A stretch of DNA of 64,000 nt from Verrucomicrobiales bacterium. GTDB taxonomy: Bacteria > Verrucomicrobiota > Verrucomicrobiia > Verrucomicrobiales > V1-33. The stretch covers positions 5,013 through 69,012 of the forward strand of contig JANOAV010000105.1 in the NCBI GenBank assembly GCA_031411295.1, in the 5' to 3' direction. Each line of letters begins with the position of its first letter. Position 1 is the stretch's first letter. Shown here in pieces: positions 19,254 through 59,900 of the stretch. Under the pieces are notes generated by a model. That model did no database searches. It was not told where the DNA came from and worked only from the letters and a program-made list of their open reading frames with translations. Position numbers and translations under genes: made by a program.

Positions 19254-19419
19254 AAGACGTGGGATGGCTGTCTCAGTTGCACCAAGCGCCTGCGAGCGAG
19301 CACATCCCAATCGCTTCAGACATCTGCTTGGATGCCTCAATCTCTGCAATTTCACCTACGTTCAGAGGCCTGAATCTCACTTGATTAAGTTGCGCAGAGT
19401 GGCTCTGTTGGTTCATTCC

Positions 19420-19761: not shown

Positions 19762-19805
19762 TTGGGTGCTGGACAGGTGATGATTTCTCCGTTAGTTCTC
19801 CCCCC

Positions 19806-42561: not shown

Positions 42562-45500
42562 TAGGTAAGCATCGGGCTGGGGGTGAGCTTGGCGAGGTGG
42601 CGACGCAGCTTGTCTGCCATCTGACTAACATTTGGCTCATCGAAAATCTCCAAATGATTACCCGGGACGCGATCTATGATGAGCCGATCCACCAAACTGG
42701 TCCAGCCATAATCCTCGCTGAGGTCAAACTTATCGCTGACTTCACTGCTGCGGAAGAGCAGCATCGTGGTGGCCAGCGGTGCCGCTCGATAGCCCTCGGC
42801 CGCCTGGATATTGGCTTCCCGAATCTGCACATAACGCAGACGTTCTTCCTCCGCCCTGACCCCTTGCTTGAGCAAACGCCGCGCAGAAGCAGTCTCGGCG
42901 TCGGTGCGGAACCGCTGAATCAAGCCGGAACTAAAACGGCCTCCGAGTTGCAATAACTTGCCCGCCACATTGTGGGATTGACTCGTGCGCCAATTCACGC
43001 TGATGCGCTCACCGAGCGTGTATTCGCGAGCCGGCACATTGGGGTTTTCCGTATCAAACATCACTAGTAAGGGAACCTCCTCACCAGCCGCCAACAGTTG
43101 CTGCGCCATTTCATAGGCCACTAAACCGCCATAACTGTAGCCGCCGAGCACGTAGGGGCCGCGGCGTTGGGCCAGTCTGATTAAGGCCACATACTCTGCC
43201 GCGACCGCCGGAATCGGGATCGATTCGATGGGCAGCGATTCATCGATCAAGGCGGGCGATTCCACAGTGTAGAGTTGCCGCTCCGTCCCGAAGCGCGAAA
43301 GCAACCCCTTGTAAAACAGCGCTCCGCCATCTCCGCCATGAATTCCGAAGAACGCCAGTTCATCCCCCGTTGGTTGAATACAGGTTAGGGGGGAGACCTT
43401 GCCGCGGGTGGCATTGGCCGTCGTTTCGATCACCGTGGCCAATTTCTCCAAGGTGGGGGCGCGGAACAAGGTGCCCAGCGGGAGGGCGACGCGGAAGTCA
43501 GTCCGGATACGAGTGAACAAACGCAGGCCGTGGAGCGAGGTGCCGCCGATTTCGAAGAAATTATCGTCGCTGCTTACGGCGGTGAGCCGAAGGATGTCCT
43601 GCCAAATTAACGCCAGTCGTTGCTCGAAATCCGTGCGCGGAGCCACATAGGCTCGTGCCCGGTCGGTGGGAGGCACAACCATGTCAGGTTGTGGGGCGGA
43701 GAGTGCTTGGCGGTTCAGTTTGCCGTTTTCGGTGAGCGGGAAACTCTCCATGCAGACGTAAGCAGAGGGGACCATGTAGTCCGGCAGTTTCGCTTGCAGG
43801 TGCTTGCGGAGGGCTTCGCTGGTGGGGAGATCTTTGTCATACACCACAAACGCGGCCAGATACGTTTCGCCATCCGCATTCTGCTGGGGCAGAACGGCGG
43901 CATCGCGCACGTCCGGATGGGTTAAGAGCACGGATTCGATTTCCCCTAGCTCAATGCGGTAGCCCCGCAGTTTGACCTGCTGATCCGCCCGCCCCAGATA
44001 CTCCAACTCGCGCCCTGGACGGAAACGTGCCAGATCTCCCGTGCGATACAATTTCGCTCCGGGCCGACCAGTCAAATGATCAGGCACGAAGCGCTCCGCC
44101 GTAAGTTCTGGGCGGTTTAGATAGCCTTGAGCCAGACCATCGCCACCAACATACATTTCCCCCACGCAACCAAATGGCACCGGTTCACCTGCTGTGTCCA
44201 AGAGATATATTTGCAGATCAGGAATGGGCACCCCGATCATGCTCCCGCCTTTCATATCTGCTGTAGTTAGTGGACGATAGGTCACATGCACGGTAGTTTC
44301 AGTAATGCCATACATGTTGACCAACTGCGGTGATTGATCTCCATGGCGGGCGAACCAGGGCTGCAAGGCCGCCATTTCCAGCGCCTCACCACCGAAGATG
44401 ACGTAGCGCAGACTAAGCGCCGGAGCCTGCGACAAGGTTGCTTCTGCCGCCATCAGTTGTTTGAAGGCACTCGGCGTTTGATTCAGCACGGTGACCTTTT
44501 CTGTCGCCAGCAATTCATAAAATTCATCAGGGGAGCGGGCCAAATTAAACGGCACGACGACCAAGCGACCGCCATACAGCAGCGCACCCCAGATTTCCCA
44601 GACGCTAAAGTCAAAGGCTGCGCTGTGGAAGAGGGTCCAAACGTCACGGGCGTTGAAGTTGAACCACGCCTCCGTGCTCTGCATTAAGCGCGTCACGTTC
44701 CGATGAGTGATCCGGCAGCCCTTCGGCTGGCCGGTCGATCCACTGGTGTAAATCACATACGCGATGTCATCCGGAATGATGCTGGTTAGAGGATTTGTGG
44801 TCGGGAAATCTGTTAGCGCGTCATCGATGAACAACGTGCGTCCAGCGTGTTCGGGCAGTTGTTTCAGCAGACTGCGCTGCGCCACTAGCACCGGGGCGGC
44901 AGCGTCTTCCAGCAGGAAGGCCAGACGCGCGGCAGGGTAGCTCAGATCCATGGGGACATAGGCGGCTCCCGCTTTCAAGATCCCCAGAATGGCCACCACT
45001 AAAGGATTGGCGCGCTCCAGGCACAGCCCCACCAGCATGCCGGGGCGCACCCCGGCCTCAATCAAGGCGTGGGCCAGTTGGTTGGCGCGGGCGTTCACTT
45101 CACCATAGGTCAGGTTTTGCGTGCCGCAGGTCAGCGCCAAGGCCTGTGGATGCTGCTGGGCTTGTTGTTCGAACCAAGCATGCAGACAGAGATCTCCTCC
45201 AGCCTTGCGGCCATGAGCGTTGAAGCCGTGGATCAGTTCGCTGCGTTGCCCGGTGGTGAGCATGGGAAGCCGGGATATTTCCATTTCTGGATGGGCGCAG
45301 AGTGACTGTAACAAACGTTGATAGTGCAGCATCCATTGCTGGATTGTCTCCTCGCGGAATAGTTCGGAGCGCGCAGCACATAACAGTCGCAGATCCTCTG
45401 CCCCCTGATAAGCATAGAGGGTCAGCGGGAAGTTGGACCGCAACTTGGGATTCAATATCGTCGTGAAGGCCAGTCCGCCTGCTGCGATCGTGTCAGCCCC

Positions 45501-48500
45501 CATCGATTCCAAACTAAAGGCCGTCGGCACGAACTGCTGGCGCTCCTGGCCGCTGATGCCCTTGAGTTCATTCAGAATTTCTCCTAACGTGCAGTCTTGA
45601 TGGTCCATCGCCTCCATCACTTGTTGCCGGACCTGTTCCAGGAAGCTCAGCGCCTTGGTCGATCCATGGACCTTGGCCCGCAGCGGGAGAAACTGCACGC
45701 AATGCCCCACCAGTCCGGCTTGCCCCGTGGCCGCTTGTCCGGCAAAGGGCACGCCCACCAGAAAATCATCCTGCCCTGTCAGTCGATGCAGCAAGACTTC
45801 CCACGCTCCCAGCATGATTTGAAATACCGTGAGCCGTCGCTCCTTCGCGATGTGTTTGACCTGATCCAACAATCCCGCAGGCAGGGTTAAGGCCACGGAG
45901 AAAGTATCGTAGCCCGGTGCCTTGCGGGTAAAGTCTGTCGGCAGCGCGAGCGGAACTGGAGGGTTGGCCAAGCGCTGCAACCAATAGGCCTTCGAGGCCG
46001 CGCCCTCGCCCGAGGCTCGCTGGATGCGCTCATCAGCGGCATAGGCATCGAAGCGTGGGGCCGGAGTCGCGAATGGCTTCTGCTGCTGCGTCAATTCATA
46101 CGCTTGCGGTAACTCTTGGAGGAGCACTCCGAACGACCAGCCATCACAAATGATGTGATGTGCCGTTAGGATTAAATGATGTTTCTGCTCCCCCAGCTTG
46201 ATTAAAGCCGCCCGCAACATGGGGCCGTGGTTCAGCGCGAACGGGGTTAGGAAATGTTGCCGCCGCACTTCCTTCAGTTGCAGTTCCTGTTCTGCGCCAC
46301 TGAGTTCGCCTAGCTCCAGCAACGGCAGCGGGAGGCGCACATTGGCGGCAATGTGCATCCCTTCCCCGTCTTCATCAAACGATGCTCTGAGGGCCACGTG
46401 GCGTTCCAACAGCATACCCAAAGCCTGATGCAGCGTTTCGGGCTGCAATTCCCCGTTGATCTCCACCGTCACAGATTCATGGCAAGCCGTGGAGGCTTGC
46501 TCGTCGAGCGATGATGCCAGCAGCAATTCCTGCTGCGCTGCGGTCAGCGGGGCATAGGACGGCATGAAAGTGGCCACCACTTCCAAGGAGGCGGGTTTCG
46601 AAGCTGCCGCTGCCATGTCTTGCTGAGTGGGGAGGAATCCTCCCGCTTGCAGTGCGCGCACACTTTCTTTAAAGGCGGCTATCACTTGCGCGATCTCTTC
46701 ATCGGTGTGCTGGGTGCAGAGGAAACTGCTGCGCCCCGCCCACACATGGATGCCGCGTAGGCGCAGATGGAGAAATAGCAGTTCCGTGTATTTCAACTGC
46801 GGAGCAAAATTTACAAAATAGTAGCTGCTGAAGTGGGTTAGCCGAATCGGCACTCCAGCATCCTGACAAAAGGTATTGATGTCGCCCACGAACTTCGTCG
46901 TGCGTTCATTCATCCACGTTTGGAGTTGCGGCCCCTTTTCTTTGAGATGCAGCAACACGGCCTTGGCCGCCGCCAGTGCCAACGGATGGCGCACAAAGGT
47001 GCCGGCAAAAAAAGTGACCCCAACTTCCGGTCCAGAGTCATCCCCATACTGCCACTGACCGCCATCCAGTGCGTCCAGGAATTTCCGCTTCCCGGCCACC
47101 ACGCCAATGGGGAAGCCGCCGCCGATAATTTTGCCATAGGTGGCAATGTCTGCTTCAATGCCAAAATAACCCGCGGCCCCCCGGGGATGGATGCGGAAGC
47201 CGTTCACCACTTCGTCCAAGACTAACGCGATTCCATGTTCTGCGGTAATCGCCCGCAGGGTGTGGAGGAACTCCGCTGGTTGCAGTTCGGGACGTCGGCT
47301 CTGGACCGTTTCCACCAGCACCGCAGCAATTTCATGCGCATGGTCGCGAATGATCTCCAGGGACTCCGGGTTGTCATAATCCAATACCAAAATGTTCTCT
47401 CCCACGGCCTCGGGAATCCCCGGTGCGATGGGGATGGTGTGCAGTTGCTCGCCCTCCATCATCGGTCGCACTAGCACCTCGTCCATGATGCCGTGGTAGG
47501 CCCCGGCAAACATCACGATCTTATCGCGACCGGTCACGGTGCGGGACGTGCGAATGGCCGCCATCAAGGCTTCGCTGCCGGTATTGCAGAAGCTCACGCG
47601 CTCATGTCCGGTGAATTCGAGAAACAAAGTGGCTACTTCGCCCACCAGCGGATTGGTTGGTCCAATCTCGATTCCCTTCTCCAACTGCGCCTGCACCGCA
47701 TCCATCACAAAGGACGCGCGATGGCCGAGGAAGCCAACACCGAAGCCTTGGGTGATGTCGATGTATTCATTGCCATCCACATCCCAAATCCGACCGCCCT
47801 GAGAGCGATCCACAATCAGCGGATAGACCGCTTCTTTCCACAAATGATTGAATCCAGCGACTGCGCGCGGATCAGCAAAATGGTGGCGATGCTCCTGCGT
47901 GAAGGCCTTCGAGCCCTTGGTTTTGGCGGTATAGGCCGCCAGTAACTCATCCAAGTGAGCGCGTTGAGTTTCCGTCAGCGATCCATCCTTGGCCGTTTGC
48001 AACGGACGGAACGGTCCGAAGGCAATCCGCTTGTCAGAGTTCACGTTCTGACTCATGGCGCGCACGGAGAACTTCTGCACCGCACCAACGCCCGGTGCCA
48101 GCAGCTCCCGCCGCAAATCCCCAATCGCTTGTTCGATGATGGCCAGACGATCTCCCGCAGGAGCAGGGACGCTGCTTGGAAGCAATGACAGTGGCTGACT
48201 TGGGGCTGTTGGTTGGAATTTTTCCGGTGGCAATTGGGCATCGAGATAGTCTGCCAACGATTGCAATGAGCCCAGTTCCTCCGCGATCTGGCGGAAGGTA
48301 ATTTTAACGCCGAAATGCTTCCGCAGGAAAATGCTCGCCTGAGTTAGGAACAGGGAGTCGAAACCGAGATCAAAGAATGAAGCTGCCGCAGGCGCACTGC
48401 TGAGATCAATGCCGCTGGCCTTGTGTAACTGGGTTCGCAGTTCGCTTAACAAGTGTTCTGGCCGGGAGATGCTCCCCACAACAAGGAGTGGGGGACTCAA

Positions 48501-51236
48501 CGCCGGAGCACTTAAGCCTGCGGTCACGATCCCATTTCCTGGCAAGAGCGCACTCTCACCGACCCGGGTGGTTCCTTCCGGCAACGAGCGAGCTGCGCAG
48601 AAACGTTCACGCTGGAACGGATACCCCGGCAACGTCACGCGCTGACGGATTTCCCCTGCATGCAGCGCGGACCAGTCAATCTCCACGCCCCCCAGCCACA
48701 ATCGGCCGAGCGTGCGCATGAGTTCTGCGGACTCACCCGCGCCTGCGGCCTTGGCGGGTGGGAGTGAACTTAGGATTGTGGTGGCGGTGGCGGCTTGCGG
48801 ATGTTGTCGCGCCAACGTAGCGAGCGCCTGACCGGGGCCCACTTCAAGGAGCGCTATCGGGCCGTCCCCTAACAGTGAACCGACCCCCTCGGCAAACCGC
48901 ACGGTTTCCCGAATATGGCGCAAATAATATCCAGGCGAAGTCGCCTCCTCATCCGTGATGCGTCGGCCGGTCACGTTGGAGAGATACGGGATCTGTGGTG
49001 GATGCAACGTGATGCCATCAAAGGCCCTGCGGAAGCGATCCAGGGCTGGTTCCATCATCGAGGAGTGAAAGGCGTGACTAGTGACCAAACGCCGACAACT
49101 AATTTCCTCGCGTGCGAAAACAGATTCCATGGCCGTGATCTGATCCAGTGATCCGGACACCACCATCAAGTTAGGACTATTGACCGCCGCCAGATCCACG
49201 CCTGGCAGGAGGAGCGCCCGCACTTTAATTTCGTCTGCCCGCACGCCGAGCATGGCCCCGGGCTCGCATTCCCAGAGACAGCGTCCCCGTGCCACCATCA
49301 GTTTCAGAGCATCCGGCAAACTCATGACCCCTGCCAGACAAGCCGCCACATACTCGCCAGCGCTGTGGCCGATCATGACCGAGGGCTGAACTCCCCAGGC
49401 CATCAGTAGTTTCGCCAAGGCATATTCAGTGACGAACAAGGCGGGTTGGGTGTAGCGTGTCTCTGCCAACTGAAGTTCTGCCGTGGCGGAATTTTCTGGC
49501 GCTGGATTGAGCAGCGTTCTTAAATCAATCTCCAGCAGCGGTTGCAGGATCTCACAGCATTCTTGCAGTGCCTCCCGAAACACCGCCTCCTCCTTTGCCA
49601 AAGCTGCGCCCATGCCAATGTGTTGTGATCCTTGCCCTGCAAAGAGAAATGCCACGGGCAAGCGCCGTTCCCGTTGCACTTGCGTGAAATAATCTTTCCC
49701 TGCCGCCCCAGTCAGCGCGGTCTTGGCCTCTTCCACCGTGCTGGCAGCCAGAGCCAGACGATGGTTGAAGAGTTGCCGCCCGATTTGCAAAGTGAGCGCA
49801 ACATCGGCTAGGTTCGTTTGTCCGGAGAGGTGCTGTGCCAAGTCCTGCCGCATCTGTTCCAGCGCTGGTGCAGTCTTCGCTGACAGCACCAAGATTTGAG
49901 AACTGCATCCGCTATCGCTCGTGGGAAGTTCCGGAGCTTCCTCCAGCACGACATGCGCATTGGTGCCGCCGACGCCAAAGGAACTAACTCCTGCCCGCCG
50001 CGGATGGTCCAGACGTTTCCACTCCGTCGTTTTGCGATTAACGTAAAATGGACTATCTTCCAATCCTAACGTCGGATTGGGGGTCGTGAAATGGAGGCTG
50101 GCCGGGATCGTCCGATGATAGAGCGACAACGCCGTTTTGATCAGTCCCGTCACTCCCGCAGCGGCATCCAGATGGCCAAAATTTGATTTAGCACTGCCGA
50201 TCGCACAGAAGCCAGTGCGTGTGCAACCACCCGCGCGGAAGGCTTCGGTGAGTCCGGCTATTTCAATGGGATCCCCAATGGGCGTAGCGGTGCCGTGCGC
50301 TTCAATATAGTCAATCGTATCGGGTTCAATCGCGCCTAACGCTTGCGCCAGACTGATGACTTCGGCGTGGCCGCCCACGCTGGGAGCCGTGAAACTCGAT
50401 TTCTCCGAGCCATCGTTATTGATCGCTGCGCCCTTGATCACCGCATAAATGCGATCTCCGTCCCGCACCGCGTCCTCGATCCGCTTCAATACCACCACGC
50501 CCAGTCCATTGCTGAAAATAGTGCCTTGCGCTCTCTCATCAAAGGATCGGCAATGACCATCCGGGGAGACAATGCCTCCTTCTTGATAAAGATAACCCCG
50601 CTCTTGGGGGAACTTGACACTAACGCCCCCCGCTAACGCGACATCACACTGGAAAGTCTGCAAACCACTAACCGCCTGGCAAATCGCCACCAGGGAGGTG
50701 GCGCAGGCCGTATAGATATTGAGGGCTGGACCGCGGAGATTGAGTTTGTAAGCCACGCGCGTCGCGAGGTAATCCTTTTCATTACCGATCATGACCAGTT
50801 CCGGGCCGGCTTGTTGGCGGATTTCTGGGTTGAACTCCACCTGGCTTTGGAAATAACTATTGCTGGACATCCCCGCATACACTCCGATGCAACTAGTGCT
50901 CCGAGCGGGATCGACTGCGGCATCTTCCAGCGCATGATAGCATGCTTCGAGGAATAACCGTTGCTGAGGATCTGTCACCTCCGCCTCCTTCGGGCTCATG
51001 CCGAAGAAGCTGGCATCGAACCATTCGGGTTGATGCAGGATGCCTCGACGCGGGACGTAATCAGGATCGTTCGCCGCTTCCTCAGGGCTTAGCTCGTCTT
51101 TAGCAAGCGTCGTGATGCCTTCTTCGGCCTGCACGAGGCGCTGCCAGAAAGCCTGCAGATCGTCCGCTCCAGGAAATTTACCAGCAAGGCCAACAATGGC
51201 GATGCCTTCGAGTGCAGTGGTAGATGGGTCGTTCAT
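42561..51236 (-). CDS. Hybrid type I PKS-NRPS: KS-AT-ACP-aminotransferase(class III)-C-A(Thr)-PCP-TE
   Basis: KS: TACATS, EAHGT, KSNFGH. AT: GHSAGE, HAFH (malonyl). ACP: LGFDSL. PLP lysine: TYGKIIGGG. C: HHIICDG. A: YTSGSTG, code DFWNIGMV. PCP: IGGTSL. TE: GYSYG. Start ATG 51236 is 7 bp after the upstream stop. Confidence 0.95.
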   Translation of the reverse strand: MNDPSTTALEGIAIVGLAGKFPGADDLQAFWQRLVQAEEGITTLAKDELSPEEAANDPDYVPRRGILHQPEWFDASFFGMSPKEAEVTDPQQRLFLEACYHALEDAAVDPARSTSCIGVYAGMSSNSYFQSQVEFNPEIRQQAGPELVMIGNEKDYLATRVAYKLNLRGPALNIYTACATSLVAICQAVSGLQTFQCDVALAGGVSVKFPQERGYLYQEGGIVSPDGHCRSFDERAQGTIFSNGLGVVVLKRIEDAVRDGDRIYAVIKGAAINNDGSEKSSFTAPSVGGHAEVISLAQALGAIEPDTIDYIEAHGTATPIGDPIEIAGLTEAFRAGGCTRTGFCAIGSAKSNFGHLDAAAGVTGLIKTALSLYHRTIPASLHFTTPNPTLGLEDSPFYVNRKTTEWKRLDHPRRAGVSSFGVGGTNAHVVLEEAPELPTSDSGCSSQILVLSAKTAPALEQMRQDLAQHLSGQTNLADVALTLQIGRQLFNHRLALAASTVEEAKTALTGAAGKDYFTQVQRERRLPVAFLFAGQGSQHIGMGAALAKEEAVFREALQECCEILQPLLEIDLRTLLNPAPENSATAELQLAETRYTQPALFVTEYALAKLLMAWGVQPSVMIGHSAGEYVAACLAGVMSLPDALKLMVARGRCLWECEPGAMLGVRADEIKVRALLLPGVDLAAVNSPNLMVVSGSLDQITAMESVFAREEISCRRLVTSHAFHSSMMEPALDRFRRAFDGITLHPPQIPYLSNVTGRRITDEEATSPGYYLRHIRETVRFAEGVGSLLGDGPIALLEVGPGQALATLARQHPQAATATTILSSLPPAKAAGAGESAELMRTLGRLWLGGVEIDWSALHAGEIRQRVTLPGYPFQRERFCAARSLPEGTTRVGESALLPGNGIVTAGLSAPALSPPLLVVGSISRPEHLLSELRTQLHKASGIDLSSAPAAASFFDLGFDSLFLTQASIFLRKHFGVKITFRQIAEELGSLQSLADYLDAQLPPEKFQPTAPSQPLSLLPSSVPAPAGDRLAIIEQAIGDLRRELLAPGVGAVQKFSVRAMSQNVNSDKRIAFGPFRPLQTAKDGSLTETQRAHLDELLAAYTAKTKGSKAFTQEHRHHFADPRAVAGFNHLWKEAVYPLIVDRSQGGRIWDVDGNEYIDITQGFGVGFLGHRASFVMDAVQAQLEKGIEIGPTNPLVGEVATLFLEFTGHERVSFCNTGSEALMAAIRTSRTVTGRDKIVMFAGAYHGIMDEVLVRPMMEGEQLHTIPIAPGIPEAVGENILVLDYDNPESLEIIRDHAHEIAAVLVETVQSRRPELQPAEFLHTLRAITAEHGIALVLDEVVNGFRIHPRGAAGYFGIEADIATYGKIIGGGFPIGVVAGKRKFLDALDGGQWQYGDDSGPEVGVTFFAGTFVRHPLALAAAKAVLLHLKEKGPQLQTWMNERTTKFVGDINTFCQDAGVPIRLTHFSSYYFVNFAPQLKYTELLFLHLRLRGIHVWAGRSSFLCTQHTDEEIAQVIAAFKESVRALQAGGFLPTQQDMAAAASKPASLEVVATFMPSYAPLTAAQQELLLASSLDEQASTACHESVTVEINGELQPETLHQALGMLLERHVALRASFDEDGEGMHIAANVRLPLPLLELGELSGAEQELQLKEVRRQHFLTPFALNHGPMLRAALIKLGEQKHHLILTAHHIICDGWSFGVLLQELPQAYELTQQQKPFATPAPRFDAYAADERIQRASGEGAASKAYWLQRLANPPVPLALPTDFTRKAPGYDTFSVALTLPAGLLDQVKHIAKERRLTVFQIMLGAWEVLLHRLTGQDDFLVGVPFAGQAATGQAGLVGHCVQFLPLRAKVHGSTKALSFLEQVRQQVMEAMDHQDCTLGEILNELKGISGQERQQFVPTAFSLESMGADTIAAGGLAFTTILNPKLRSNFPLTLYAYQGAEDLRLLCAARSELFREETIQQWMLHYQRLLQSLCAHPEMEISRLPMLTTGQRSELIHGFNAHGRKAGGDLCLHAWFEQQAQQHPQALALTCGTQNLTYGEVNARANQLAHALIEAGVRPGMLVGLCLERANPLVVAILGILKAGAAYVPMDLSYPAARLAFLLEDAAAPVLVAQRSLLKQLPEHAGRTLFIDDALTDFPTTNPLTSIIPDDIAYVIYTSGSTGQPKGCRITHRNVTRLMQSTEAWFNFNARDVWTLFHSAAFDFSVWEIWGALLYGGRLVVVPFNLARSPDEFYELLATEKVTVLNQTPSAFKQLMAAEATLSQAPALSLRYVIFGGEALEMAALQPWFARHGDQSPQLVNMYGITETTVHVTYRPLTTADMKGGSMIGVPIPDLQIYLLDTAGEPVPFGCVGEMYVGGDGLAQGYLNRPELTAERFVPDHLTGRPGAKLYRTGDLARFRPGRELEYLGRADQQVKLRGYRIELGEIESVLLTHPDVRDAAVLPQQNADGETYLAAFVVYDKDLPTSEALRKHLQAKLPDYMVPSAYVCMESFPLTENGKLNRQALSAPQPDMVVPPTDRARAYVAPRTDFEQRLALIWQDILRLTAVSSDDNFFEIGGTSLHGLRLFTRIRTDFRVALPLGTLFRAPTLEKLATVIETTANATRGKVSPLTCIQPTGDELAFFGIHGGDGGALFYKGLLSRFGTERQLYTVESPALIDESLPIESIPIPAVAAEYVALIRLAQRRGPYVLGGYSYGGLVAYEMAQQLLAAGEEVPLLVMFDTENPNVPAREYTLGERISVNWRTSQSHNVAGKLLQLGGRFSSGLIQRFRTDAETASARRLLKQGVRAEEERLRYVQIREANIQAAEGYRAAPLATTMLLFRSSEVSDKFDLSEDYGWTSLVDRLIIDRVPGNHLEIFDEPNVSQMADKLRRHLAKLTPSPMLT

Positions 51237-51243
51237 GGGGAAG

Positions 51244-54200
51244 TTAGGAAAGCGGTGGGAGTCCGCGCGCCCGTGCCATGGCGGCTCGGGCAGCGGTCGC
51301 CCGGGCGCGGGCTTGCGTCGCCATGTTCTGGGCAGCGGTGATGGGGAGGGCGGCTGGTTTCGCGGGGTGCAGTGGTGGGGCGGTTTCCAGCAGCCCCGCC
51401 AGCGAGGCAATCGTCGGATGCGAGAAAACCTGCACAATCGAGAGGGTCAAGCCCAACTCACTGCGCAGTCGCTGATGCACGCGTATCATCAGTAATGATT
51501 GCCCCCCAAGATCGAAGAAATTTTCGTGGATCGAAATGTCAGTGAGGCCAAAGGCGCGTTGCCAGATCTCGGCCATGGCCTTTTCCAAAGGCGTGCGCGG
51601 AGCGACACGTTCGGCGGTTCGCGTCACTGGCAGGGTGGTCGGGGCCATGCCCGCTGGCAGTTGGCAGGAGGCCATGATGGTGGACAATGAATGCTGCTCT
51701 GGGCCGATGAGCTGCAGGAGGAGTTGCTTCCATTCCTCCAGCAGCAAGCGGGCCCGGGCGGGGGAACACGAGGCCGCTTGATGGGCTAATAATATTTCGT
51801 AGGTCGTCCCCGGCGTAATCATTAGCGTCAGCGGGTAGTTCGTATGCACTGGCCCGACGAACTCCGACAACGCGACCTCGGGGCCAAAGGTCATGACCCC
51901 ATGTTGCGTCTGGAAGTTTTGGAACACCAGCAAACTGTCGAACAAGCGTCGATTCCAGGGGATCTCACTCCATTCCTGCATTTGCGCGATGCTGGAATGC
52001 TGATGCCCCGTCAGTGTAAAAAGCTGGGCCTGAACTTCCTTGATAAAATCTTTGGAGCGCTGATCCGGCCTGACTTGCAGGCGGACCGGCAGGTTGTTGA
52101 TAAAGGGGCCGACGATGCGTTCCACGCCCGCTAGTTCGCTGGGACGACCATTGCTGGCAGTGCCGAACATCACTTCCGTGACATCGGCACAACGTGCCAA
52201 GAGCAGTGCCCAAGCGGCATGGAGCACCGCCCCGTTGGTAACTTGGTGCGCCCGAGCAAAACGTGTGAGCCGATCCACCACATCAACGCCAAGCACGATC
52301 ACGGTTTCGGAGAATTTCCGGCCGACCCCTTGATGCTGTAAGGTTTCGAGCGGCACTGGGGTTGGTGCCGTAAGGCCACGAAGTTCCGCGCGCCAGAAAT
52401 CAGCCTCAGCTTCTTGCGGTCTGGCCTGCAGCCATGCCAAATATTCCCGATACGCGGGTGCCACCGGCAGCGGGGTGCTTGAGGTCATGAGCGACGAAAC
52501 CTCCTGGAAGACAATTGGCCAGGACCAGCCATCCATCAGGATTTCCGGCACGCACCATAGGAATCGCCAGGTGGTGTCCGTCAAACGGATCAGCGCGAAA
52601 CGTGAGAGGGGAGCGATTGTCAAATCATTCGGTCGCGCTGCGTCTTGCAGAAGAAATTCCGTCCACTTTGCAGCGTGCGTTTCCGCCGCCTGTCCGCGCC
52701 AATCGTCGAGGTGCCAGTAGGGTTGCAGTCCATTCCTCACGACTTGCACGGGCTGGTTCAATTGATGGGAATGAAAGGAGGTGCGCAGCAACCCATGGCG
52801 CTGCAAGACTTGCTCCCAGGCGGCCTGGAAACGTGGCACATCGAGTGGCCCCTCCAACCGGCTGTGCCATTGGTCATAGCCGGCATTGGTTTTGGCTACG
52901 GCGGCTCCATAATACAATTCTTGAATCGGAGAGAGCGGCCAGACATCCGCCACCTCTCCTGGCGCTTGTTGGAGCTTGGCTAGTTCAACCGGGGAAAGTT
53001 TCACCAGCGTGAAATCGTTGACCTCCGGAGGCGCAGCCAATCCCTGGCTGGCCCGTGTGATGATTTCCCGCAAGGCGCTGGCGAAAGCTTCCACTAATGG
53101 TTGCACGCGAGCTGTAGCAAGGCGATCGGCGTTATACTTCCACTCGAGTTGGAATTTCTCCTCGCGAATAAAGCAATCGATCTCATGCTCGTGCAGCCGC
53201 ATGGCGGAGAAATGATGCCACGGTCCGGTGGCTTCAGGGGCGAGCGTGAAGAGAGTGGATTCGGCTGTCAGTTGATCGAGTCGGCCCCAGAAGTTAAAAG
53301 CAATTTCAATCTCGCTAGGCGGCAAAGGAGAAGTGTCTGCATACCGCAGGAAACCATAGCCAGCACCATTTTGCGGCAGGCTCTGGAGTTGGTCCCGCAC
53401 GTGTCGCATGACGGCAAGGATGTCATTACTTTCCGGCGGCAAGGTGAGGCCAAGTGGAAAGAGTGCGGTAAACCAACCCACGGTCCGGCTGAGATCTGCG
53501 CTGCCGAAAAGTTCCTCCCGTCCATGCGCCTCTAAATGCAGCCAAACTTGATCACGCCCCAACTGCCGATGACAGGCCAAGAGGAAGGCACTGAGCAGCG
53601 CGTCTTGGATGCGCGTGCGATAAACGTTGGGAACCTTTTGCAGCAGCGTCGTTGTTTCCTCAACGGTTAGTTCAAAGCGCAAGGTGGTCGCGCTCCCTTC
53701 AGTGTTAGTGTGGCTGCGATTAGGCTCCAGCAATGGCGTGATGGTTCCCGGCAACCGCTGTGCCCACCAGGTCTTCTCGGCCATGGCCGCTGGAGAGCGT
53801 GACCAAAGCTCGCCCAACGCCGCCGCATCCGCAAAGGGCGTAGGCACGGCTTCCAGCGCGGCACCATGATAGGCTGCTTCAAGGTCGTGCAGCAGAATAT
53901 TCCACGACACGCCATCCACCGCCAAGTGATGCGCGACGCACAGTAAGCGCCCCGGACGATCCTCGCCCAAGTCCGCATACACCAAGCGCAGCAGCGGGCC
54001 ATGCTCATAGTTCAAGCGCGATTGCGCAGACTCGCTGAGTTTGAGGATTTTCTGCGCCAATTTGCCATTGGCGAAACCATTTAAATCATGGCATTCCAAG
54101 GTCTCCAAGACCTCCAAAGCGGAAACCTTCTGCTGCCACCCCGAGGCACCTTTGGTGAATCTGAGCCTCAGCGCCTGATGCTGAGCAAGCAGCGCAGCTA

Positions 54201-57200
54201 CGGCGCGACGCAGCTTAGGCACCTCCAGCCGTTCATTGACCGACAGTAGGAAAGCTTGATTCCAGTGGTGACTAGCCTGGAGTTCCTGGGCAAAGAACCA
54301 GCGCTGAATGGGCAGCAGTGGAATGTTCTCGGTCGAAGCATTCAGGGCGGATTGGGTCGCTTGCCCCAAGCCTTCGATCTTTGCCAGTTGGGCGATGGTT
54401 TGATGTTCGAACAACTGCCGCGGCGTGAAGGATAACCCTACTTTGCGAGCTTGGGCAATCATGTGAATGCTCAAAATGGAATCACCACCGAGGGCAAAGA
54501 AGTTATCGTTCACACCTACACGGTCCACCTTTAGGACCTTCGCCCAGATGCGTGCTAACTGCGTTTCCGCTGCGGTAGCAGGCTCCACGAATGCTTGCGT
54601 CAGGAGTTCGCGCGGGCCGCTGGGAGCTGGTAATGCCACGCGATCCAGCTTGCCGTTGCTGGTGAGAGGAAAATGCTCCAAGACCACGAAAGCCGCCGGC
54701 ACCATGTAATCTGGCAACTTAATCTGGAGATGCGAGCGGAGCGACTCAACGCTGGGTCGCTCGGCTTTGGGGACGAGATAGGCCACAAGTCGCTTCTCCC
54801 CGGGATGATCTTCGCGCGCCAGCACCGCCACTTCCTGCACTTGCGGATGAATTGTTAGGATGGATTCGATTTCTCCCAATTCAATGCGGAAGCCACGAAT
54901 TTTAACCTGTTGATCGATCCGCCCCAGATACTCTACGTCACGGCCGGGGAGGAAGCGAGCGAGGTCGCCCGTGCGGTAAAGCCGGGCGTTAGGCAACGTG
55001 GAAAATGGATTGGCAATGAAACGCTGTGCAGTCAGTTCCGGACGCTGCAAGTAACCCTGAGCAAGCCCGGCCCCGCCGACGAATAATTCCCCGGGCACGC
55101 CTAACGGCACCGGTTGGAGGTGCGCATCGAGGATGTAGAGTTGGAGATCCGGGATCGGAATTCCGATCACGCTGCCCCCGTGGACGTCGGCGGCCGAGAT
55201 CGGGCGGTAGGTCACGTGCACCGTTGTTTCCGTGATGCCATACATATTCACCAGTTGAGGCGTCCGGTCGCCATGACGCTCGAACCATGGTTGCAGGCTT
55301 TGCATTTCCAAGGCTTCGCCTCCGAAGATGACGTAGCGTAGAGCCAGATCCAGGGGCTGGGTGGCGGCGGCCTCTGCGGCCATGAGTTGACGGAAAGCGC
55401 TGGGGGTTTGATTCAGGACGGTGACTTGCTCTGCTGCCAGGAGTCGATAAAAATCCTCGGGCGAACGTGAGGTGTGGTAAGGCACGATCAACAGGCGACC
55501 ACCATACAGCAGCGCGCCCCAGATCTCCCAAACGCTGAAGTCAAAAGCCACACTGTGAAATAGCGTCCAAACATCCGTGCTATCAAATCCAAACCAAGCC
55601 TCGGTGCTTTGGAACAAGCGCGCCACGTTGCGATGTGTGACGATGCACCCCTTGGGTCGCCCCGTAGAGCCGCTCGTGAAAATCACATAAGCCGCATGGT
55701 CGGGGGTGACTTCGACGGATGGATCATTGGAGTTTCCACCGTGGTAGATTTGCAGGTCATCCACATACAGATTCTTGCAACCGTGCCGTGGCAGGCGGGC
55801 GCTGAGCTTGCGTTGCGTTAGCAGCACCGGAGCCGCCGCATCTTCCAGCATGAAACTCAGACGTTCCGCCGGATAACTCAGATCGATGGGAACGTAGGCG
55901 GCACCACATTTCAGTATCGCCAGCAAAGCCACGATCAAATCCAGGCTGCGTTCCACACACACGCCCACCAGCATGCCCGGGGTCACCTGCTGACCCTGCA
56001 AATAATGCGCCAGTTGGTTCGCCCGTTGGTTGGTCTGGGCATACGTCCAGTTCGTGCCCTCACAAGTAAGCGCAATGTCGTTTGGCGTGCGGGCCGCAAT
56101 CCCTTCGAACCAATGGTGCAGGCAAATGTCTCCACCGAATTCGCGCTGCCCCTGATGGAAATCCTCCACCAGTTCGCGACGTGCTTCGCTGGTAAGGATT
56201 TGCAATTCGCTCAGGGGCTTTTCAGGATGGTCGCAGAGCGATTCAATCAGCATTTCGTAATGTTGCAGCCATCTCTCCGCGGTGGCTTCCGTGAGCACTG
56301 CGCAGTTGTATTCCAACACCAACGCATAACCTTCAGGCAACGGAGTGGTCTCCAAGACCAGATCGAATTTGGCCCCTCCGTTGTGGATGCTAACGGGCTC
56401 GCAGGCAAGGCCGGGCACGCTGAAATCCGCCCCCGCAGAATCCTGGAGGACAAACAAATGCTGGATCAGCGGGGGATGGCTGAGATCGCGCGGCAGGTTC
56501 AGGGAATCGACCAAATTCTCGAAAGGCAGATCCTGATGATTCAAGGCGTTCACTACCGTCGCCCGAGCGGACGCAAGGAAATCCAGACCTGACTGCTCAG
56601 GGTGGCATGACGTCCGGAGAATGACGGTATTGACAAAACAGCCCATCACATTCTGCACCGCTGAATGCGTGCGCCCCGCCACTGGGGTGCCGATGACGAT
56701 GTCGGTGGCTCCGCTTAGTCGATGCAGGAGCACTTGGAAGGCCCCGGCCAGGATGACGAAGGGCGTGGTTTGCACTCGTTGCGCCAGGGCTTCGATGCGT
56801 TTCCGGAGATCGAGTCTTAATCCCCGCGCCACCACATCGCCCACATAATTTCGCACCGGAGGGTGCGGGCGATCCGTCGGCAGTTGGAGGATCGGTGGGG
56901 CTCCGCGCATTTGCTCTTTCCAATAAGCCAGGTCTGCCGTGAAGTCCCCGGTCTCCAGACGGCGGTTGATCCATGAGGCAAAGCCGGCACACGTGGCCGC
57001 GAGTTGCGGCCAGACTGGCTGACGCTGACGCAAGGCGGCGTTGTAGGCCAGCGCCAAATCCTGATAGAATAAGGTGACCGACCAACCATCCGAGATGATG
57101 TGGTGGAAGGTAACCACGAGCAAATGCTCCTCGGGCGAAATCTGATAGAGCAAGCAGCGACACAGCGGACCTTCCGCCAGACTAAACGGGATGCGGGCGT

Positions 57201-59595
57201 CAGCCGTGGCGAGTTCCAATGCGGCCTCCAAGTTGCCCACCTGGCTCACCTGCCAGTGCAGTGGGGTTTCCGGATGCAATTTCTGACTTGGACGACCGTC
57301 AATGCTGGGGAAGGTGGCGCGCAGCACGCTGTGACGTTGGACCACGCTGCGCAGGGCCGCGGCTAGGAAATCCTGTCGCAGTGGACCTTGCAGGCGACGT
57401 GCCGTGGGGATGTTATAGGCCGCGCGATTCCCGATTAGTTGATCGAGGAACCAGAGCCGTTGCTTCGGTGGCGACAATTCCGTCTCCTCCTGCGCCAGCA
57501 GATTCAGCTCGGAGGCGTCAATCCGCGGCAAGTTAGGCTGTTGCAATTTTGCGGCTAGCAGCGCCACGGTTGGTTGGGTAAATAACAGCGTGAGGGGCAG
57601 TCGGACGTTGAATTGATCCGCTATGAGGGAAACAATGCGCGTTGCGGCCAGCGATTGGCCACCAAGGTCGGTGAACCGATCCATCACGCCGATAGGATAG
57701 ACTTGAAGCACTTCCTCCCAGATCTGCACGAGGCGCGACTCCATTTCGTCGCGCGGGGCGACGAGTTCCGTGGCACTGACAGGGCGGGCCCGTTTGCGGG
57801 CGCTGGCGACGGCTTTGGCGATGTTGGCCGCCGATTGAAATTGGTTGGCGATGGCCGCGAAATCCGGCCGTGTCACTGGGGCGGCTTCATTGAATGGCGC
57901 TGAATCCGCAGCGGGAACCGGAAGGGTGACGGCATCCGCATTAAATTTCACCGCTCTGGCTCGCGTGACGGGGAAATGATAGTTGCCGTCCTTGAAGCCG
58001 TCCGGGCAGACTGCTTCCAGGAAATTTGCCATCGGTTGATTCCGTGCCGTGGCTTTGAACGGCAGCACAATGCCGAGGCTTTGGCGCGCAGCGGCTTCGT
58101 CGCCTAACTGCGCCAGCATCCGATGCTCGACTCCCTTTCCCAGCACGCGACACGACAGCAGAAAATTTTCCACAAAACAAAGCGGACCGCGCGTGCGGTA
58201 GATTAGCAAACCCACATCGCCATAGTCACCGAAGCGATCCTTCACATGCAGCAGCAAGGCATGCGTGTCCGCCGCCTGCAGCGCATTGGCGACCTCGGCC
58301 TCCGTGCGGCGGACTCCAGTGGCGTTGAACTGATTCGTGCGTTGAGTGAGTTGAGATACCCGCGGATAGTCGAAGAGATTCGGGATGCGAAATGTTAGCT
58401 GCAATTCCAGCCCGTCGATAAAATCTGCGAACGAGGTGGCTTGTGCCGCCGCTTGCGTGCGCTGGGCGTTGACCTGCATCAACTCCGTGCGTCGGCCATC
58501 CTCCTTGGTGGCAGCATGGATGTCCAGTGCCCAGTGGTGATTGATGAGCGGGAGGATCTCATTTTCCTGAGCCGGGAGCGTGATGGTCGTGAGGTCCGGA
58601 AATGCCGCCGCCACCTCGGCACATTCGATGGGGTTATCATCGATGAAGACCACGGCATCCGGATGGATATTCCATTCGGAGAGCAACTCCCGCACGCTGC
58701 TGGATTTCGGTCGCCAGGAAATTTTCCAGCCCGCAAAATCCGCCTCTTGGAGGATCATTTCCGGTCGGGCCAAGGTTGCGCGAACGTCGCGCACTTCATT
58801 TTTACTGGCTAGGCCGAGCAAAGCCCCTTGTTGCTTCAAGTGCAGTAAATGCCGCTGGAAGGCTAAGCGCGCTGACCCCAGGGTGATTCCACCAGCGCCG
58901 ACTTCACCCACCACGCCACCCCACAGCGTCTGGTCCGCATCCACGATGACGGCCTTGCAGGGAGCTTGCAGCAACGTTCGCGCCCGGCGCATCAAGGCTG
59001 CCCCCAGCGCGGCAAAGTATTCCGGGGCATAGGGCACATGGCCTTGCCGGTCACTTTCTGGATCATGGATCTGGCTGACGGGATACCACACCTCCACCTC
59101 CTCCGCCGTGATCACACTGAAGCCAGGCAACTGGCGCAACGTGCGCCCACACTCGTCGTAGGCCAAATGCAATGACTGCTGCAAGGCGGGTTCCAATTTC
59201 GCCAGATCGCTCAGCGGACAGAGCATTACAATCGTCGGCCGATGTGCCTGCCCCGCAAAGATCTGCATGGCATCCAGCAACTCCAAGGTCACCAGCCTAA
59301 CCTGATCCAAGCGACCTTCTGTGGCGCTGGTGAATTCGCTCCCCCCCTGCCGCAAGGCATCTTCCAGCCGCAGCAGGAAAAAATTTACGCCCGGAACATC
59401 ACTGCGCGCGGGACTGGCTGGATTGAGTAACTCTTGAAAAAGTTGATTGTAACCCGCCAGCGAAATTTCCGCCGGATCCAACTGCAAGCGCGGCAACCAG
59501 AAAGCAAAATGCTCCTCCAACGGCTCCACCGTAAACGAAGCTGCCACCCGGAACATCCGGGGTGCAGGGGGATCGTTTGCTAGTGCCGTGGACAT
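51244..59595 (-). CDS. NRPS with FkbH-like loading domain: FkbH-ACP-C-A(Thr)-PCP-E-C*(no catalytic His)-PCP (start 59595 or 59610)
   Basis: FkbH: DADQTLWGG, VFIDDNP.E, QLTQRTNQFN, DRFGDYG, LSCRVLG. Carriers: LGGQSL, LGGDSI, LGGQSL. C1: HHIISDG. A code DFWNIGMV. E: HHLAVDGVSW, EAHGRE, RTVGWFT. Final C: PEILMDGWS. Confidence 0.95.
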   Translation of the reverse strand: MSTALANDPPAPRMFRVAASFTVEPLEEHFAFWLPRLQLDPAEISLAGYNQLFQELLNPASPARSDVPGVNFFLLRLEDALRQGGSEFTSATEGRLDQVRLVTLELLDAMQIFAGQAHRPTIVMLCPLSDLAKLEPALQQSLHLAYDECGRTLRQLPGFSVITAEEVEVWYPVSQIHDPESDRQGHVPYAPEYFAALGAALMRRARTLLQAPCKAVIVDADQTLWGGVVGEVGAGGITLGSARLAFQRHLLHLKQQGALLGLASKNEVRDVRATLARPEMILQEADFAGWKISWRPKSSSVRELLSEWNIHPDAVVFIDDNPIECAEVAAAFPDLTTITLPAQENEILPLINHHWALDIHAATKEDGRRTELMQVNAQRTQAAAQATSFADFIDGLELQLTFRIPNLFDYPRVSQLTQRTNQFNATGVRRTEAEVANALQAADTHALLLHVKDRFGDYGDVGLLIYRTRGPLCFVENFLLSCRVLGKGVEHRMLAQLGDEAAARQSLGIVLPFKATARNQPMANFLEAVCPDGFKDGNYHFPVTRARAVKFNADAVTLPVPAADSAPFNEAAPVTRPDFAAIANQFQSAANIAKAVASARKRARPVSATELVAPRDEMESRLVQIWEEVLQVYPIGVMDRFTDLGGQSLAATRIVSLIADQFNVRLPLTLLFTQPTVALLAAKLQQPNLPRIDASELNLLAQEETELSPPKQRLWFLDQLIGNRAAYNIPTARRLQGPLRQDFLAAALRSVVQRHSVLRATFPSIDGRPSQKLHPETPLHWQVSQVGNLEAALELATADARIPFSLAEGPLCRCLLYQISPEEHLLVVTFHHIISDGWSVTLFYQDLALAYNAALRQRQPVWPQLAATCAGFASWINRRLETGDFTADLAYWKEQMRGAPPILQLPTDRPHPPVRNYVGDVVARGLRLDLRKRIEALAQRVQTTPFVILAGAFQVLLHRLSGATDIVIGTPVAGRTHSAVQNVMGCFVNTVILRTSCHPEQSGLDFLASARATVVNALNHQDLPFENLVDSLNLPRDLSHPPLIQHLFVLQDSAGADFSVPGLACEPVSIHNGGAKFDLVLETTPLPEGYALVLEYNCAVLTEATAERWLQHYEMLIESLCDHPEKPLSELQILTSEARRELVEDFHQGQREFGGDICLHHWFEGIAARTPNDIALTCEGTNWTYAQTNQRANQLAHYLQGQQVTPGMLVGVCVERSLDLIVALLAILKCGAAYVPIDLSYPAERLSFMLEDAAAPVLLTQRKLSARLPRHGCKNLYVDDLQIYHGGNSNDPSVEVTPDHAAYVIFTSGSTGRPKGCIVTHRNVARLFQSTEAWFGFDSTDVWTLFHSVAFDFSVWEIWGALLYGGRLLIVPYHTSRSPEDFYRLLAAEQVTVLNQTPSAFRQLMAAEAAATQPLDLALRYVIFGGEALEMQSLQPWFERHGDRTPQLVNMYGITETTVHVTYRPISAADVHGGSVIGIPIPDLQLYILDAHLQPVPLGVPGELFVGGAGLAQGYLQRPELTAQRFIANPFSTLPNARLYRTGDLARFLPGRDVEYLGRIDQQVKIRGFRIELGEIESILTIHPQVQEVAVLAREDHPGEKRLVAYLVPKAERPSVESLRSHLQIKLPDYMVPAAFVVLEHFPLTSNGKLDRVALPAPSGPRELLTQAFVEPATAAETQLARIWAKVLKVDRVGVNDNFFALGGDSILSIHMIAQARKVGLSFTPRQLFEHQTIAQLAKIEGLGQATQSALNASTENIPLLPIQRWFFAQELQASHHWNQAFLLSVNERLEVPKLRRAVAALLAQHQALRLRFTKGASGWQQKVSALEVLETLECHDLNGFANGKLAQKILKLSESAQSRLNYEHGPLLRLVYADLGEDRPGRLLCVAHHLAVDGVSWNILLHDLEAAYHGAALEAVPTPFADAAALGELWSRSPAAMAEKTWWAQRLPGTITPLLEPNRSHTNTEGSATTLRFELTVEETTTLLQKVPNVYRTRIQDALLSAFLLACHRQLGRDQVWLHLEAHGREELFGSADLSRTVGWFTALFPLGLTLPPESNDILAVMRHVRDQLQSLPQNGAGYGFLRYADTSPLPPSEIEIAFNFWGRLDQLTAESTLFTLAPEATGPWHHFSAMRLHEHEIDCFIREEKFQLEWKYNADRLATARVQPLVEAFASALREIITRASQGLAAPPEVNDFTLVKLSPVELAKLQQAPGEVADVWPLSPIQELYYGAAVAKTNAGYDQWHSRLEGPLDVPRFQAAWEQVLQRHGLLRTSFHSHQLNQPVQVVRNGLQPYWHLDDWRGQAAETHAAKWTEFLLQDAARPNDLTIAPLSRFALIRLTDTTWRFLWCVPEILMDGWSWPIVFQEVSSLMTSSTPLPVAPAYREYLAWLQARPQEAEADFWRAELRGLTAPTPVPLETLQHQGVGRKFSETVIVLGVDVVDRLTRFARAHQVTNGAVLHAAWALLLARCADVTEVMFGTASNGRPSELAGVERIVGPFINNLPVRLQVRPDQRSKDFIKEVQAQLFTLTGHQHSSIAQMQEWSEIPWNRRLFDSLLVFQNFQTQHGVMTFGPEVALSEFVGPVHTNYPLTLMITPGTTYEILLAHQAASCSPARARLLLEEWKQLLLQLIGPEQHSLSTIMASCQLPAGMAPTTLPVTRTAERVAPRTPLEKAMAEIWQRAFGLTDISIHENFFDLGGQSLLMIRVHQRLRSELGLTLSIVQVFSHPTIASLAGLLETAPPLHPAKPAALPITAAQNMATQARARATAARAAMARARGLPPLS

Positions 59596-59900
59596 ATCAG
59601 GAAATGGCATCAACCCCTTCGAGCAAGTTTCGCACAAACACAGAACTCCGTTCACACGACAAGGCGGCGTGCAGATAGCTCCTTAGCATATGAGTTGGCA
59701 TCTCAAGAAGGTCCATGGTGGTCGGTTGGCTAGAAAGGGGCATTTCTAGAAATTGTGGTATTTATCCTAAATCATATTTACCCCACAAGCAACAAATATC
59801 AACCAATCAAAAATTTCTGCACCCGCTTTCTTTTAAAAACGCGCCGCATTCGCAGATTTGAGAGCCTGTCTGAGGGGGATGTGTTTCCAGCCGCAGGGCA

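Follow-up and report, generated by a model that had tools for sequence, protein, structure and literature searches.

A conserved DCL-type condensation domain lacking the motif histidines at the junction of a nonribosomal peptide synthetase and a ketosynthase

What can a condensation (C) domain still do once both histidines of its HHxxxDG motif are gone? Annotation commonly takes this motif as the sign of whether a C domain is active or dead. The question is raised by a gene for a nonribosomal peptide synthetase (NRPS) in 64,000 nucleotides of DNA from a Verrucomicrobiales bacterium (assembly GCA_031411295.1, contig JANOAV010000105.1, positions 5,013 to 69,012), a stretch called the window below. 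The third C-family domain of the encoded protein, named C* here, carries Pro-Glu at the positions of the two histidines and is followed directly by a carrier (T) domain, T3, with no adenylation (A) domain between them. C* has lost both histidines, yet it has been kept under the same constraint as its catalytic neighbours over long evolutionary time. Judged by its distribution among related sequences, the form with Pro and a variable second residue (P-x) is a conserved variant, not a decaying relic, and the C*-T3 unit occupies a fixed position in a widespread cassette of two genes. Our tentative reading is that C*-T3 acts as a D-selective translocase that moves the growing chain from carrier to carrier, independently of the motif histidines, and so feeds a ketosynthase (KS).

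The C*-T3 unit and its class

The NRPS gene (51244..59655, minus strand, as are all its parts) encodes 2803 aa from the first GTG and was read from the list of open reading frames (ORFs), their translation, Pfam and NCBIfam as FkbH-CP-C-A-T-E-C*-T-tail, where CP is a carrier and E an epimerization domain. C* (51616..52968, approximately residues 2230-2680) reads W-C-V-P-E-I-L-M-D-G-W-S from residue 2367. The replacement of HHxxxDG by PExxxDG, noticed in a preliminary description of the window, was confirmed: Pro2370 (CCG, 52546-52548) and Glu2371 (GAA, 52543-52545) occupy the two His positions (52543..52548), each codon is indeed two base changes from a His codon (CAY), and Asp2375-Gly2376 are kept. 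A sequencing slip, already thought improbable, is excluded because the database contains the same protein (100% identity across the part queried, with the start called 33 residues later at the N-terminus) and because the seven closest orthologues of the protein (52-82% identity) all read V-P-E.

C* lies directly downstream of an E domain (53011..54333, residues 1775-2215), recognised as a Condensation-family stretch with an intact HHLAVDG motif, and this order is repeated in related loci. T3 (51361..51588, residues 2690-2765, motif LGGQS with Ser2720 at 51496-51498) starts after a gap of about 10 residues. It is followed by an Ala/Arg-rich C-terminal tail of 38 residues (51247..51360, residues 2766-2803), which is likely a docking helix. 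Seven bases past the TAA stop codon lies the ATG (51234-51236) of a hybrid gene (42561..51236, minus strand), whose order by Pfam is KS, acyltransferase (AT), acyl carrier protein (ACP), aminotransferase (AMT), C, A, T and thioesterase (TE). The preliminary description had thus placed the E domain, the A-less carrier and the helical tail correctly, and both the carrier and the tail proved to be conserved in relatives. Its term "terminal module" holds for the NRPS protein, which ends here, but not for the assembly line, which continues with the KS-AT-ACP-AMT-C-A-T-TE gene.

To which class does C* belong? With phmmer, C* alone matched 54 distinct PDB chain sequences, mainly C-family domains. The best matches were McyB (E 1.4e-64), PvdL (4e-57), bacitracin synthase 3 (4.5e-51), SrfA-C (4.7e-41) and TycB (7.4e-39); the ten best entries span E 1.4e-64 to 7.4e-39, and the next group starts with Txo2 at 1.3e-22. 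The matched domains of these five proteins are DCL domains positioned after E domains. An AlphaFold2 model of C* from a 10-sequence alignment shows an ordinary two-lobed fold (pLDDT 79.9, pTM 0.78), for which Foldseek ranked PvdL and SrfA-C first, the C domain of SrfA-C with a target-normalised TM of 0.85-0.86 and an rmsd of 3.2-3.9. Thus, by its PDB matches, C* is a DCL-type domain in all but two histidines. With McyB C1, PvdL C3, SrfA-C and TycB C1, its best matches in sequence and fold, it shares the position directly after an E domain and the motifs C1, C2 and C4-C7. In those domains HH(H)xxxDG is present and an A domain serves the acceptor amino acid, whereas C* has V-P-E, no A domain and the clade-specific residues His2604, Gly2601 and Phe2353.

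Two other classes were considered. The dehydrating C domains of the CmodAA/DHC grouping include AmbE, AlbB and Crz1-C2. AmbE (7r9x) matched C* at E 1.3e-20, far more weakly than the domains that follow E domains; by these PDB scores, C* falls outside the grouping. CmodAA domains are described as carrying, immediately N-terminal of C5, the motif [K/R]SVLLAAH with its conserved His (PMC11342130). In the alignment of C* from the window with nine P-x relatives, compared by eye, this motif is absent: the helix at its place is G-A-V-L-H-A-A-W-A-L-L-L in the window, where the consensus has L-V-Q-A-A-W-A-L-L-L, and neither the K/R nor the His is conserved at the motif positions. A heterocyclization (Cy) domain was rejected, as C* reads P-E-I-L-M-D-G and has no DxxxxD, and Cy structures matched only at E 1e-6 to 1e-7. 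The C*-T3 pair does show the features of an A-less translocation unit of the AmbE C2-T2 type, namely a C domain followed by a carrier, no A domain and an intact carrier Ser. The features of non-catalytic C-like domains, decay of the tunnel motifs together with a recruited partner enzyme nearby, were not observed.

Conservation, selection and a new invariant histidine

Is the loss of the histidines peculiar to this genome? A region-restricted search gave 1266 matches, of which the best 120 were considered; the 120 rows compared, by best local alignment, are the window protein and 119 matches, its own database copy being left out. This search was relied on in place of one with C* alone, whose top 150 were mostly giant multi-C-domain synthetases with summed scores. 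Pro stands at the first His position in 38 of the 120 rows, followed by Ala (19), Asp (11), Glu (7) or Cys (1), and the P-x state is kept in these 38 proteins down to about 38% identity. HH is found in 21 terminal A-less C-T domains and in 60 internal domains, and one internal row has another motif. Lineage-specific decay, with HH retained by all orthologues, had been named in the preliminary description as the outcome that would speak against a functional substitution; the orthologues keep the P-x form instead.

Among 41 related genomes, 12 have a match at E 1e-60 or better. The 11 loci drawn from these relatives read V-P-E (1), V-P-D (7, one of them with D-A for D-G), V-P-G (2) or L-P-D (1), and in 10 of them an A-less C-T unit lies between A-T-E and KS-AT-AMT-C-A-T-TE. 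A species scan was made with one genome per species (325 relatives); the best 80 loci were kept, on contigs that partly overlap the loci from relatives, and related sequences among them are not independent counts. In 64 of these 80 loci, the C-T unit has a KS no more than 1.2 kb downstream: 27 of HH type, 33 of P-x type and 4 ending before the motif. The 33 P-x loci read PA (13), PD (12), PP (3), PG (2), PE, PC and PS (1 each). The 16 loci without a downstream KS comprise 11 with HH, 2 with QH and 3 with PA on short contigs that end early. A metagenome scan with the C*-T of the window returned 9 loci and no close orthologue (best 32% over the C domain).

The 64 loci define a conserved cassette of two genes. 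The first gene begins with a Cs-type C domain, with FkbH-CP-C or with A-T-C and continues with A-T-E-C-T; the second encodes KS-AT-ACP-AMT-C-A-T-TE. Within the best 80 loci, this cassette was found in at least nine phylum-level groups: Verrucomicrobiota, Acidobacteriota, Nitrospirota, Methylomirabilota, Armatimonadota, Gemmatimonadota (Gemmatimonadaceae), Planctomycetota (Pirellulaceae), Actinomycetota (Thermoleophilia, Solirubrobacterales) and Proteobacteria (Burkholderiales, Rhodanobacteraceae). Nearly all holders are metagenome-assembled genomes, almost all of them uncultured. The loci flag a compact NRPS-polyketide synthase (PKS) cassette across many bacterial phyla. The HH and the P-x units occupy the same position in it, and therefore the function of the unit is compatible with the loss of both histidines; the HH sisters amount to a natural experiment on the role of the motif histidines. 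The E-domain motif begins with HH in 80 of the 83 best matches across the loci, the other 3 not covering the motif. A related basic motif after T3 ends all 26 proteins inspected, P-x and HH types alike, consistent with the docking role suggested for the tail.

The second motif position drifts among Ala, Asp, Glu, Gly, Cys, Ser and Pro, and between loci about 85% identical in C* it can be Asp or Gly. This difference argues against a specific role for Glu, and the catalytic use of Glu2371 in other chemistry, which had been suggested for this domain, is not supported. In one genus, whose loci are 83-92% identical in C*, V-P-D in one locus (L013) contrasts with V-P-G in two others (L014 and L015; genomes G011, G020 and G023). 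Two loci, from Oscillatoriales and Microcoleus (L082 and L083), have an A-less C-T unit after an E domain with Q-H for H-H, followed by a C domain and not by a KS. This cyanobacterial Q-H is a second, independent motif variant.

The trees were quick maximum-likelihood searches without bootstraps. All 59 terminal A-less domains among the 120 cluster together (SH-aLRT 99), and inside this cluster the 38 P-x rows form one group (SH-aLRT 95) that adjoins a 12-row HHH group. After removal of the 30 columns that carry the trait itself, the free tree needs 2 state changes; relative to it, a tree constrained to P-x monophyly improves the log-likelihood by 6.83 units (p-AU 0.589). A single origin of P-x is favoured by these trees, though not proven.

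Selection was estimated from the ratio of nonsynonymous to synonymous substitution rates (dN/dS) for five pairs of P-x cassettes (three of same-genus relatives and two more distant), with the window's own lineage outside the set. The ratio is 0.19-0.27 for C*, 0.21-0.24 for E, 0.19-0.36 for the catalytic C2, 0.16-0.23 for the upstream A domain (A1) and 0.05-0.07 for KS. C* is thus under purifying selection, with a constraint equal to that of catalytic C and E domains. For the P-x clade, HH terminal domains and internal DCL domains, respectively, mean column entropy is 0.74, 0.81 and 1.10 over 83 core-motif columns and 1.84, 1.82 and 1.91 over non-motif columns. In addition, all ten aligned sequences (the window and nine P-x relatives) keep the T3 Ser. 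From dN/dS, core-motif entropy and this Ser together, it follows that C* is neither decaying nor reduced to a surface scaffold.

What has changed along with the loss of HH? Five columns set the P-x clade apart from its HH relatives. The column comparison of the 120 domains revealed a His, His2604 (CAT, 51844..51846), in all 38 P-x rows and in none of the 21 HH terminal (Arg in 13) or 60 HH internal rows. Gly2601 is found in 38/38, 2/21 and 18/60 of these rows, Phe2353 in 37/38, 2/21 and 8/60, and Ala2251 in 35/38, 0/21 and 19/60. At column 2252, all 38 P-x rows have Ala, Asn, Ser or Gly, 16 of the 21 HH terminal rows have Glu, and Phe or Tyr predominates among the internal ones. Glu2252 and Arg2604 occur together in 13 of the 21 HH terminal rows (every row with Arg has Glu), and the pair is lost in the P-x clade. 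The invariant His, like the existence of HH-bearing A-less C-T units, goes beyond the preliminary description.

His2604 lies 234 residues after Pro2370 within G-P-V-H-T-N-Y-P-L (G-P-x-H-T-N-Y-P-L in the clade), which we take to be the C7 motif. In AmbE, D1726, D1728, D1734 and E1736 are reported near the active site, 230-240 residues after the first motif His, H1496, and mutation of D1726 or D1734 strongly lowered or abolished product formation (PMC10880069). The phmmer alignment of C* with the AmbE chain is nearly collinear (query 40-427 against chain 40-426). Because the offsets match and the alignment is so nearly collinear, His2604 probably lines the tunnel. As a candidate relocated catalytic His, it may replace a motif His as a base or positioning residue.

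How the chain may reach the ketosynthase

What arrives at C*? A1 (54649..56106, residues 1184-1669; Pfam) carries the nine specificity residues D-F-W-N-I-G-M-V-H and is followed by the carrier T2 (54361..54573, approximately residues 1695-1765, LGGDS; Pfam PP-binding 1699-1759). Codes were read as nine motif-anchored residues, at positions of the GrsA numbering, in 51 cassettes, another 13 being unreadable at contig ends. The upstream code is D-F-W-N-[IV]-G-M-V-H in 48 of the 51 (21 HH, 27 P-x), D-V-W-H-M-S-L-V-D in 2 and another in 1, whereas the downstream A domains have more than ten different codes. We take the first of these codes to be for Thr and the second for Ser. On this putative assignment, the Thr invoked in the preliminary description agrees with A1, and a Ser/Thr-type residue on the donor carrier, as expected for a CmodAA domain, would be present in 50 of the 51 cassettes.

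Transfer to the KS is the reading that we tentatively prefer, and among the functions proposed beforehand it is the one that fits the data best: a transacylase between carriers that hands the chain on. C*, descended from DCL domains, would no longer need the HH motif. Its donor would be T2, which serves the E domain as well and would hold an N-acylated D-Thr thioester (glyceryl-derived in this case); from there, C* would transthioesterify the chain to the phosphopantetheine thiol of the A-less T3; DCL ancestry would supply the selection for the D-epimer. T3, placed near the C-terminus with the basic docking helix, would then pass the chain on to the next protein's KS, where malonate extension, transamination, joining to the second amino acid and release would follow. 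A thiol acceptor would not need an amine-positioning His, which would account for the ability of HH and P-x to stand in for each other in one cassette, and His2604 may act as the base for the thiol. If so, C*-T3 would be a possible general answer to the question of how a chain epimerised on a T-E pair reaches a ketosynthase.

The closest functional parallel is AmbE C2-T2 from the AMB pathway of Pseudomonas aeruginosa, which is also an A-less C-T pair inside an NRPS: as reviewed, the chain is on T1 when C2 acts on it, and transthioesterification then moves it from this upstream carrier to the A-less T2 (PMC10880069). Unlike C*, AmbE C2 belongs to the CmodAA group and keeps HHxxxDG, and its pair is followed by a TE and not by a KS. 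The parallel also supplies a difficulty for transfer by C*. Since the precedent keeps its motif histidines, it does not demonstrate His-independent transfer, and mutation of the motif His (H1497) caused significant loss or abolition of the products (PMC10880069). Several further points weigh in the same direction. Pure translocation leaves the near-exclusive Thr/Ser-type code of A1 unexplained, and this fixed code may point to side-chain chemistry; the chain could conceivably pass straight from T2 to the KS; the placement of His2604 in the tunnel rests on an offset relative to D1726-E1736 of AmbE, not on a residue-level alignment; and in one locus (L019) a P-x unit, in the order FkbH-CP-C-A-T-E-C*-T, has no PKS within 11 kb downstream. 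A still wider proposal, which we regard as possible but doubtful, sees in the P-x clade a functional subtype new to the C superfamily. In this subtype, the role of HH would have moved to His2604 in the C7 loop, accompanied by Gly2601, Phe2353 and a remodelled helix 1; it would perform thiol-to-thiol transfer, possibly with Thr dehydration, at the junction from NRPS(E) to PKS, and would mark a cross-phylum family of small lipopeptides built from acyl- or glyceryl-D-Thr and a beta-amino acid.

The fixed A1 code would be accommodated by a different proposal, that C* is a modifying domain: by analogy with AmbE C2, AlbB C2/C3 and the DCL-derived NocB C5, it would dehydrate T2-bound acyl-Thr to dehydrobutyrine, or carry out other beta-hydroxyl chemistry, and then or thereby pass the chain to T3, with His2604 and its neighbours serving the elimination. 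The donor would almost always have a beta-hydroxyl if the codes are those of Thr and Ser (48 + 2 of 51), while the downstream A domain varies freely, and His2604, at 234 residues after Pro2370, falls into the interval occupied by the AmbE dehydration residues. However, C* stands outside CmodAA by sequence (AmbE 1.3e-20, against 1.4e-64 to 4.7e-41 for post-E domains) and lacks the conserved His N-terminal of C5 throughout the 10-sequence alignment. Every cassette keeps an intact E domain, which would be pointless if the alpha-centre were destroyed, and the fixed A1 code may be no more than a feature inherited along with the cassette; we consider dehydration unlikely, though it deserves to be kept in mind. 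Ordinary condensation without the motif histidines seems less probable again. Here A1 would load Thr on both T2 and T3, much as one A domain reportedly loads both carrier domains of yersiniabactin HMWP2, and acyl-D-Thr would be joined to L-Thr-T3. The HH sisters in the same cassette do look like normal DCL domains, and the Ser of the acceptor-side carrier is conserved. Several C domains are reported to be active after their second His was mutated, a residue now thought to position the acceptor amine (PMC10510592). In C*, both histidines are gone, the variable second residue (A, G, P, S, C, D or E) offers nothing to position an amine, and the Glu/Arg pair of 13 of the 21 HH terminal domains is lost as well; nothing in the data shows A1 reaching T3. 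We know of no DCL domain that condenses without both histidines.

At the other extreme, C* might have no catalytic role at all and serve as a scaffold presenting to the KS both T3 and the docking tail, or as a passive D-selective gate, in the manner of X or interface domains. The loss of both histidines and the location at a protein-protein junction with a conserved tail would suit such a role, and C-like domains without catalysis exist, as reported for the X domain of glycopeptide synthetases (PMC10510592) and the interface domain (PMC13638107). The tunnel motifs (the C3 remainder D-G-W-S-W-P, C5, the F-Q-N strand and C7) are, however, as conserved as in catalytic relatives, the new invariant residues arose in these motifs and not on surfaces, no partner tailoring enzyme is encoded nearby, and the chain must still pass from T2 to T3 or the KS. 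We therefore rate this role as improbable, a little below condensation; of the D-selective gatekeeper in the preliminary description, D-selectivity fits the DCL type and the purely non-catalytic part has become the less likely one. That C*-T3 is merely the functionless, decaying remnant of a former C-A-T module would account for the lost motif and the missing A domain, but this explanation is contradicted and scarcely credible: P-x is kept in 38 proteins and in 33 loci of several phyla, dN/dS equals that of neighbouring catalytic domains, motif entropy is not raised, and the reading frame is intact wherever the cassette is complete.

Other C domains with altered motifs or contexts resemble C* in part. 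Some CmodAA domains are described as lacking one or both histidines; those of the BlmVI type, like C*, have both replaced, keep DG and act beside a Ser/Thr-type residue (PMC11342130). Unlike C*, they belong to the CmodAA clade, have Phe with Gly/Ala and not Pro with a variable residue, and work in another assembly-line context. Unlike C*, the module-5 C domain of NocB, which reportedly has a third His, keeps its histidines and works with an A domain and an acceptor amino acid of its own. It is likewise derived from DCL domains, and the beta-hydroxyl elimination on a Ser-terminated donor described for the nocardicin beta-lactam is its own (PMC10880069, PMC10510592). MgpD of megapolipeptin synthesis (C-A-T-E-C-T-TE) shares the T-E-C-T order with a DCL-type C domain and no A domain; it differs in ending with a TE, and all megapolipeptin C domains but one, in MgpC, are described as keeping HHxxxDG (PMC11411415). 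CMxgE has H-P, with the second His replaced, and is reported to be essential (PMC13638107). It belongs to a different clade from C* and counts, with the BlmVI-type F-G/A domains and the E-C-T-TE of MgpD, among the nearest variants in the literature. No description of Pro-x for HH in a DCL domain, or of a C-T unit followed by a KS-AT-ACP-AMT gene, was found in searches of open-access papers.

For the downstream gene, the MycA and McyE modules have the same KS-AT-ACP-AMT-C-A-T order. The KS of MycA is reportedly fed by an ACP loaded by an acyl ligase, whereas the KS here would receive its chain from an NRPS carrier that follows an HH-less C domain. The AMT domain of MycA aminates a beta-keto thioester (PMC3870968).

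Upstream domains and neighbouring genes

In the NRPS protein, Pfam recognises three Condensation-family stretches, one AMP-binding and three PP-binding domains (PF00668 over the whole protein, E 8.7e-216). The protein starts with an FkbH-like loading domain (58009..58956, residues 234-549; TIGR01686, 283 bits at E 2.4e-84, the cut-off being 146.65). The first carrier domain (57541..57738, approximately residues 640-705, LGGQS) was placed by its Pfam PP-binding match and motif position, and the first C domain (56170..57492, residues 722-1162), the best PF00668 stretch, has an intact HHIISDG. The A domains of the two genes (43719-45173 and 54649-56106, minus strand) share the code D-F-W-N-I-G-M-V-H and long identical stretches around it. 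From this shared code, the product of the window would contain two residues of one amino acid.

In the window, neither a stand-alone A domain nor a P450, an oxygenase or another tailoring gene was found near the cassette. A gene for a trypsin-like peptidase (41539..42561, minus strand, 340 aa), recognised by weak Pfam matches below the cut-offs, abuts the stop codon of the hybrid gene and may belong to the operon. The peptidase could serve product maturation or self-protection. Among the compared loci, it matched only the contig of a same-genus relative (L009 = L020), as did a 796-aa ORF; the other neighbours tried gave no match. Locus L019, the P-x unit without a PKS (G008:C262, 11233-19485, minus strand), reads V-P-D with D-A for D-G and has no KS, AT or aminotransferase within 11 kb downstream. 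It is followed by an L,D-transpeptidase gene and a giant PATR-repeat protein, and a complete cassette lies on another contig of the same genome.

The remaining genes characterised lie elsewhere in the window. An ORF of 772 aa (3836-6154, minus strand) unites Mur-ligase domains with two domains of MurB, the FAD-binding and the C-terminal one; a MurB/MurC fusion has reportedly been described in Verrucomicrobium, which would fit nearest relatives in Verrucomicrobiales. On the plus strand, a protein of 2922 aa (6420-15188) with lamin-tail, PA14, CotH, laminin-G-like and chitobiase-C-like domains is probably a giant surface or secreted protein. Further along, a run of plus-strand genes (15458-22231) comprises genes for two ATPases (MoxR-type AAA and ABC) and for a DUF58 protein, besides unannotated ORFs; it is unrelated to the cassette.

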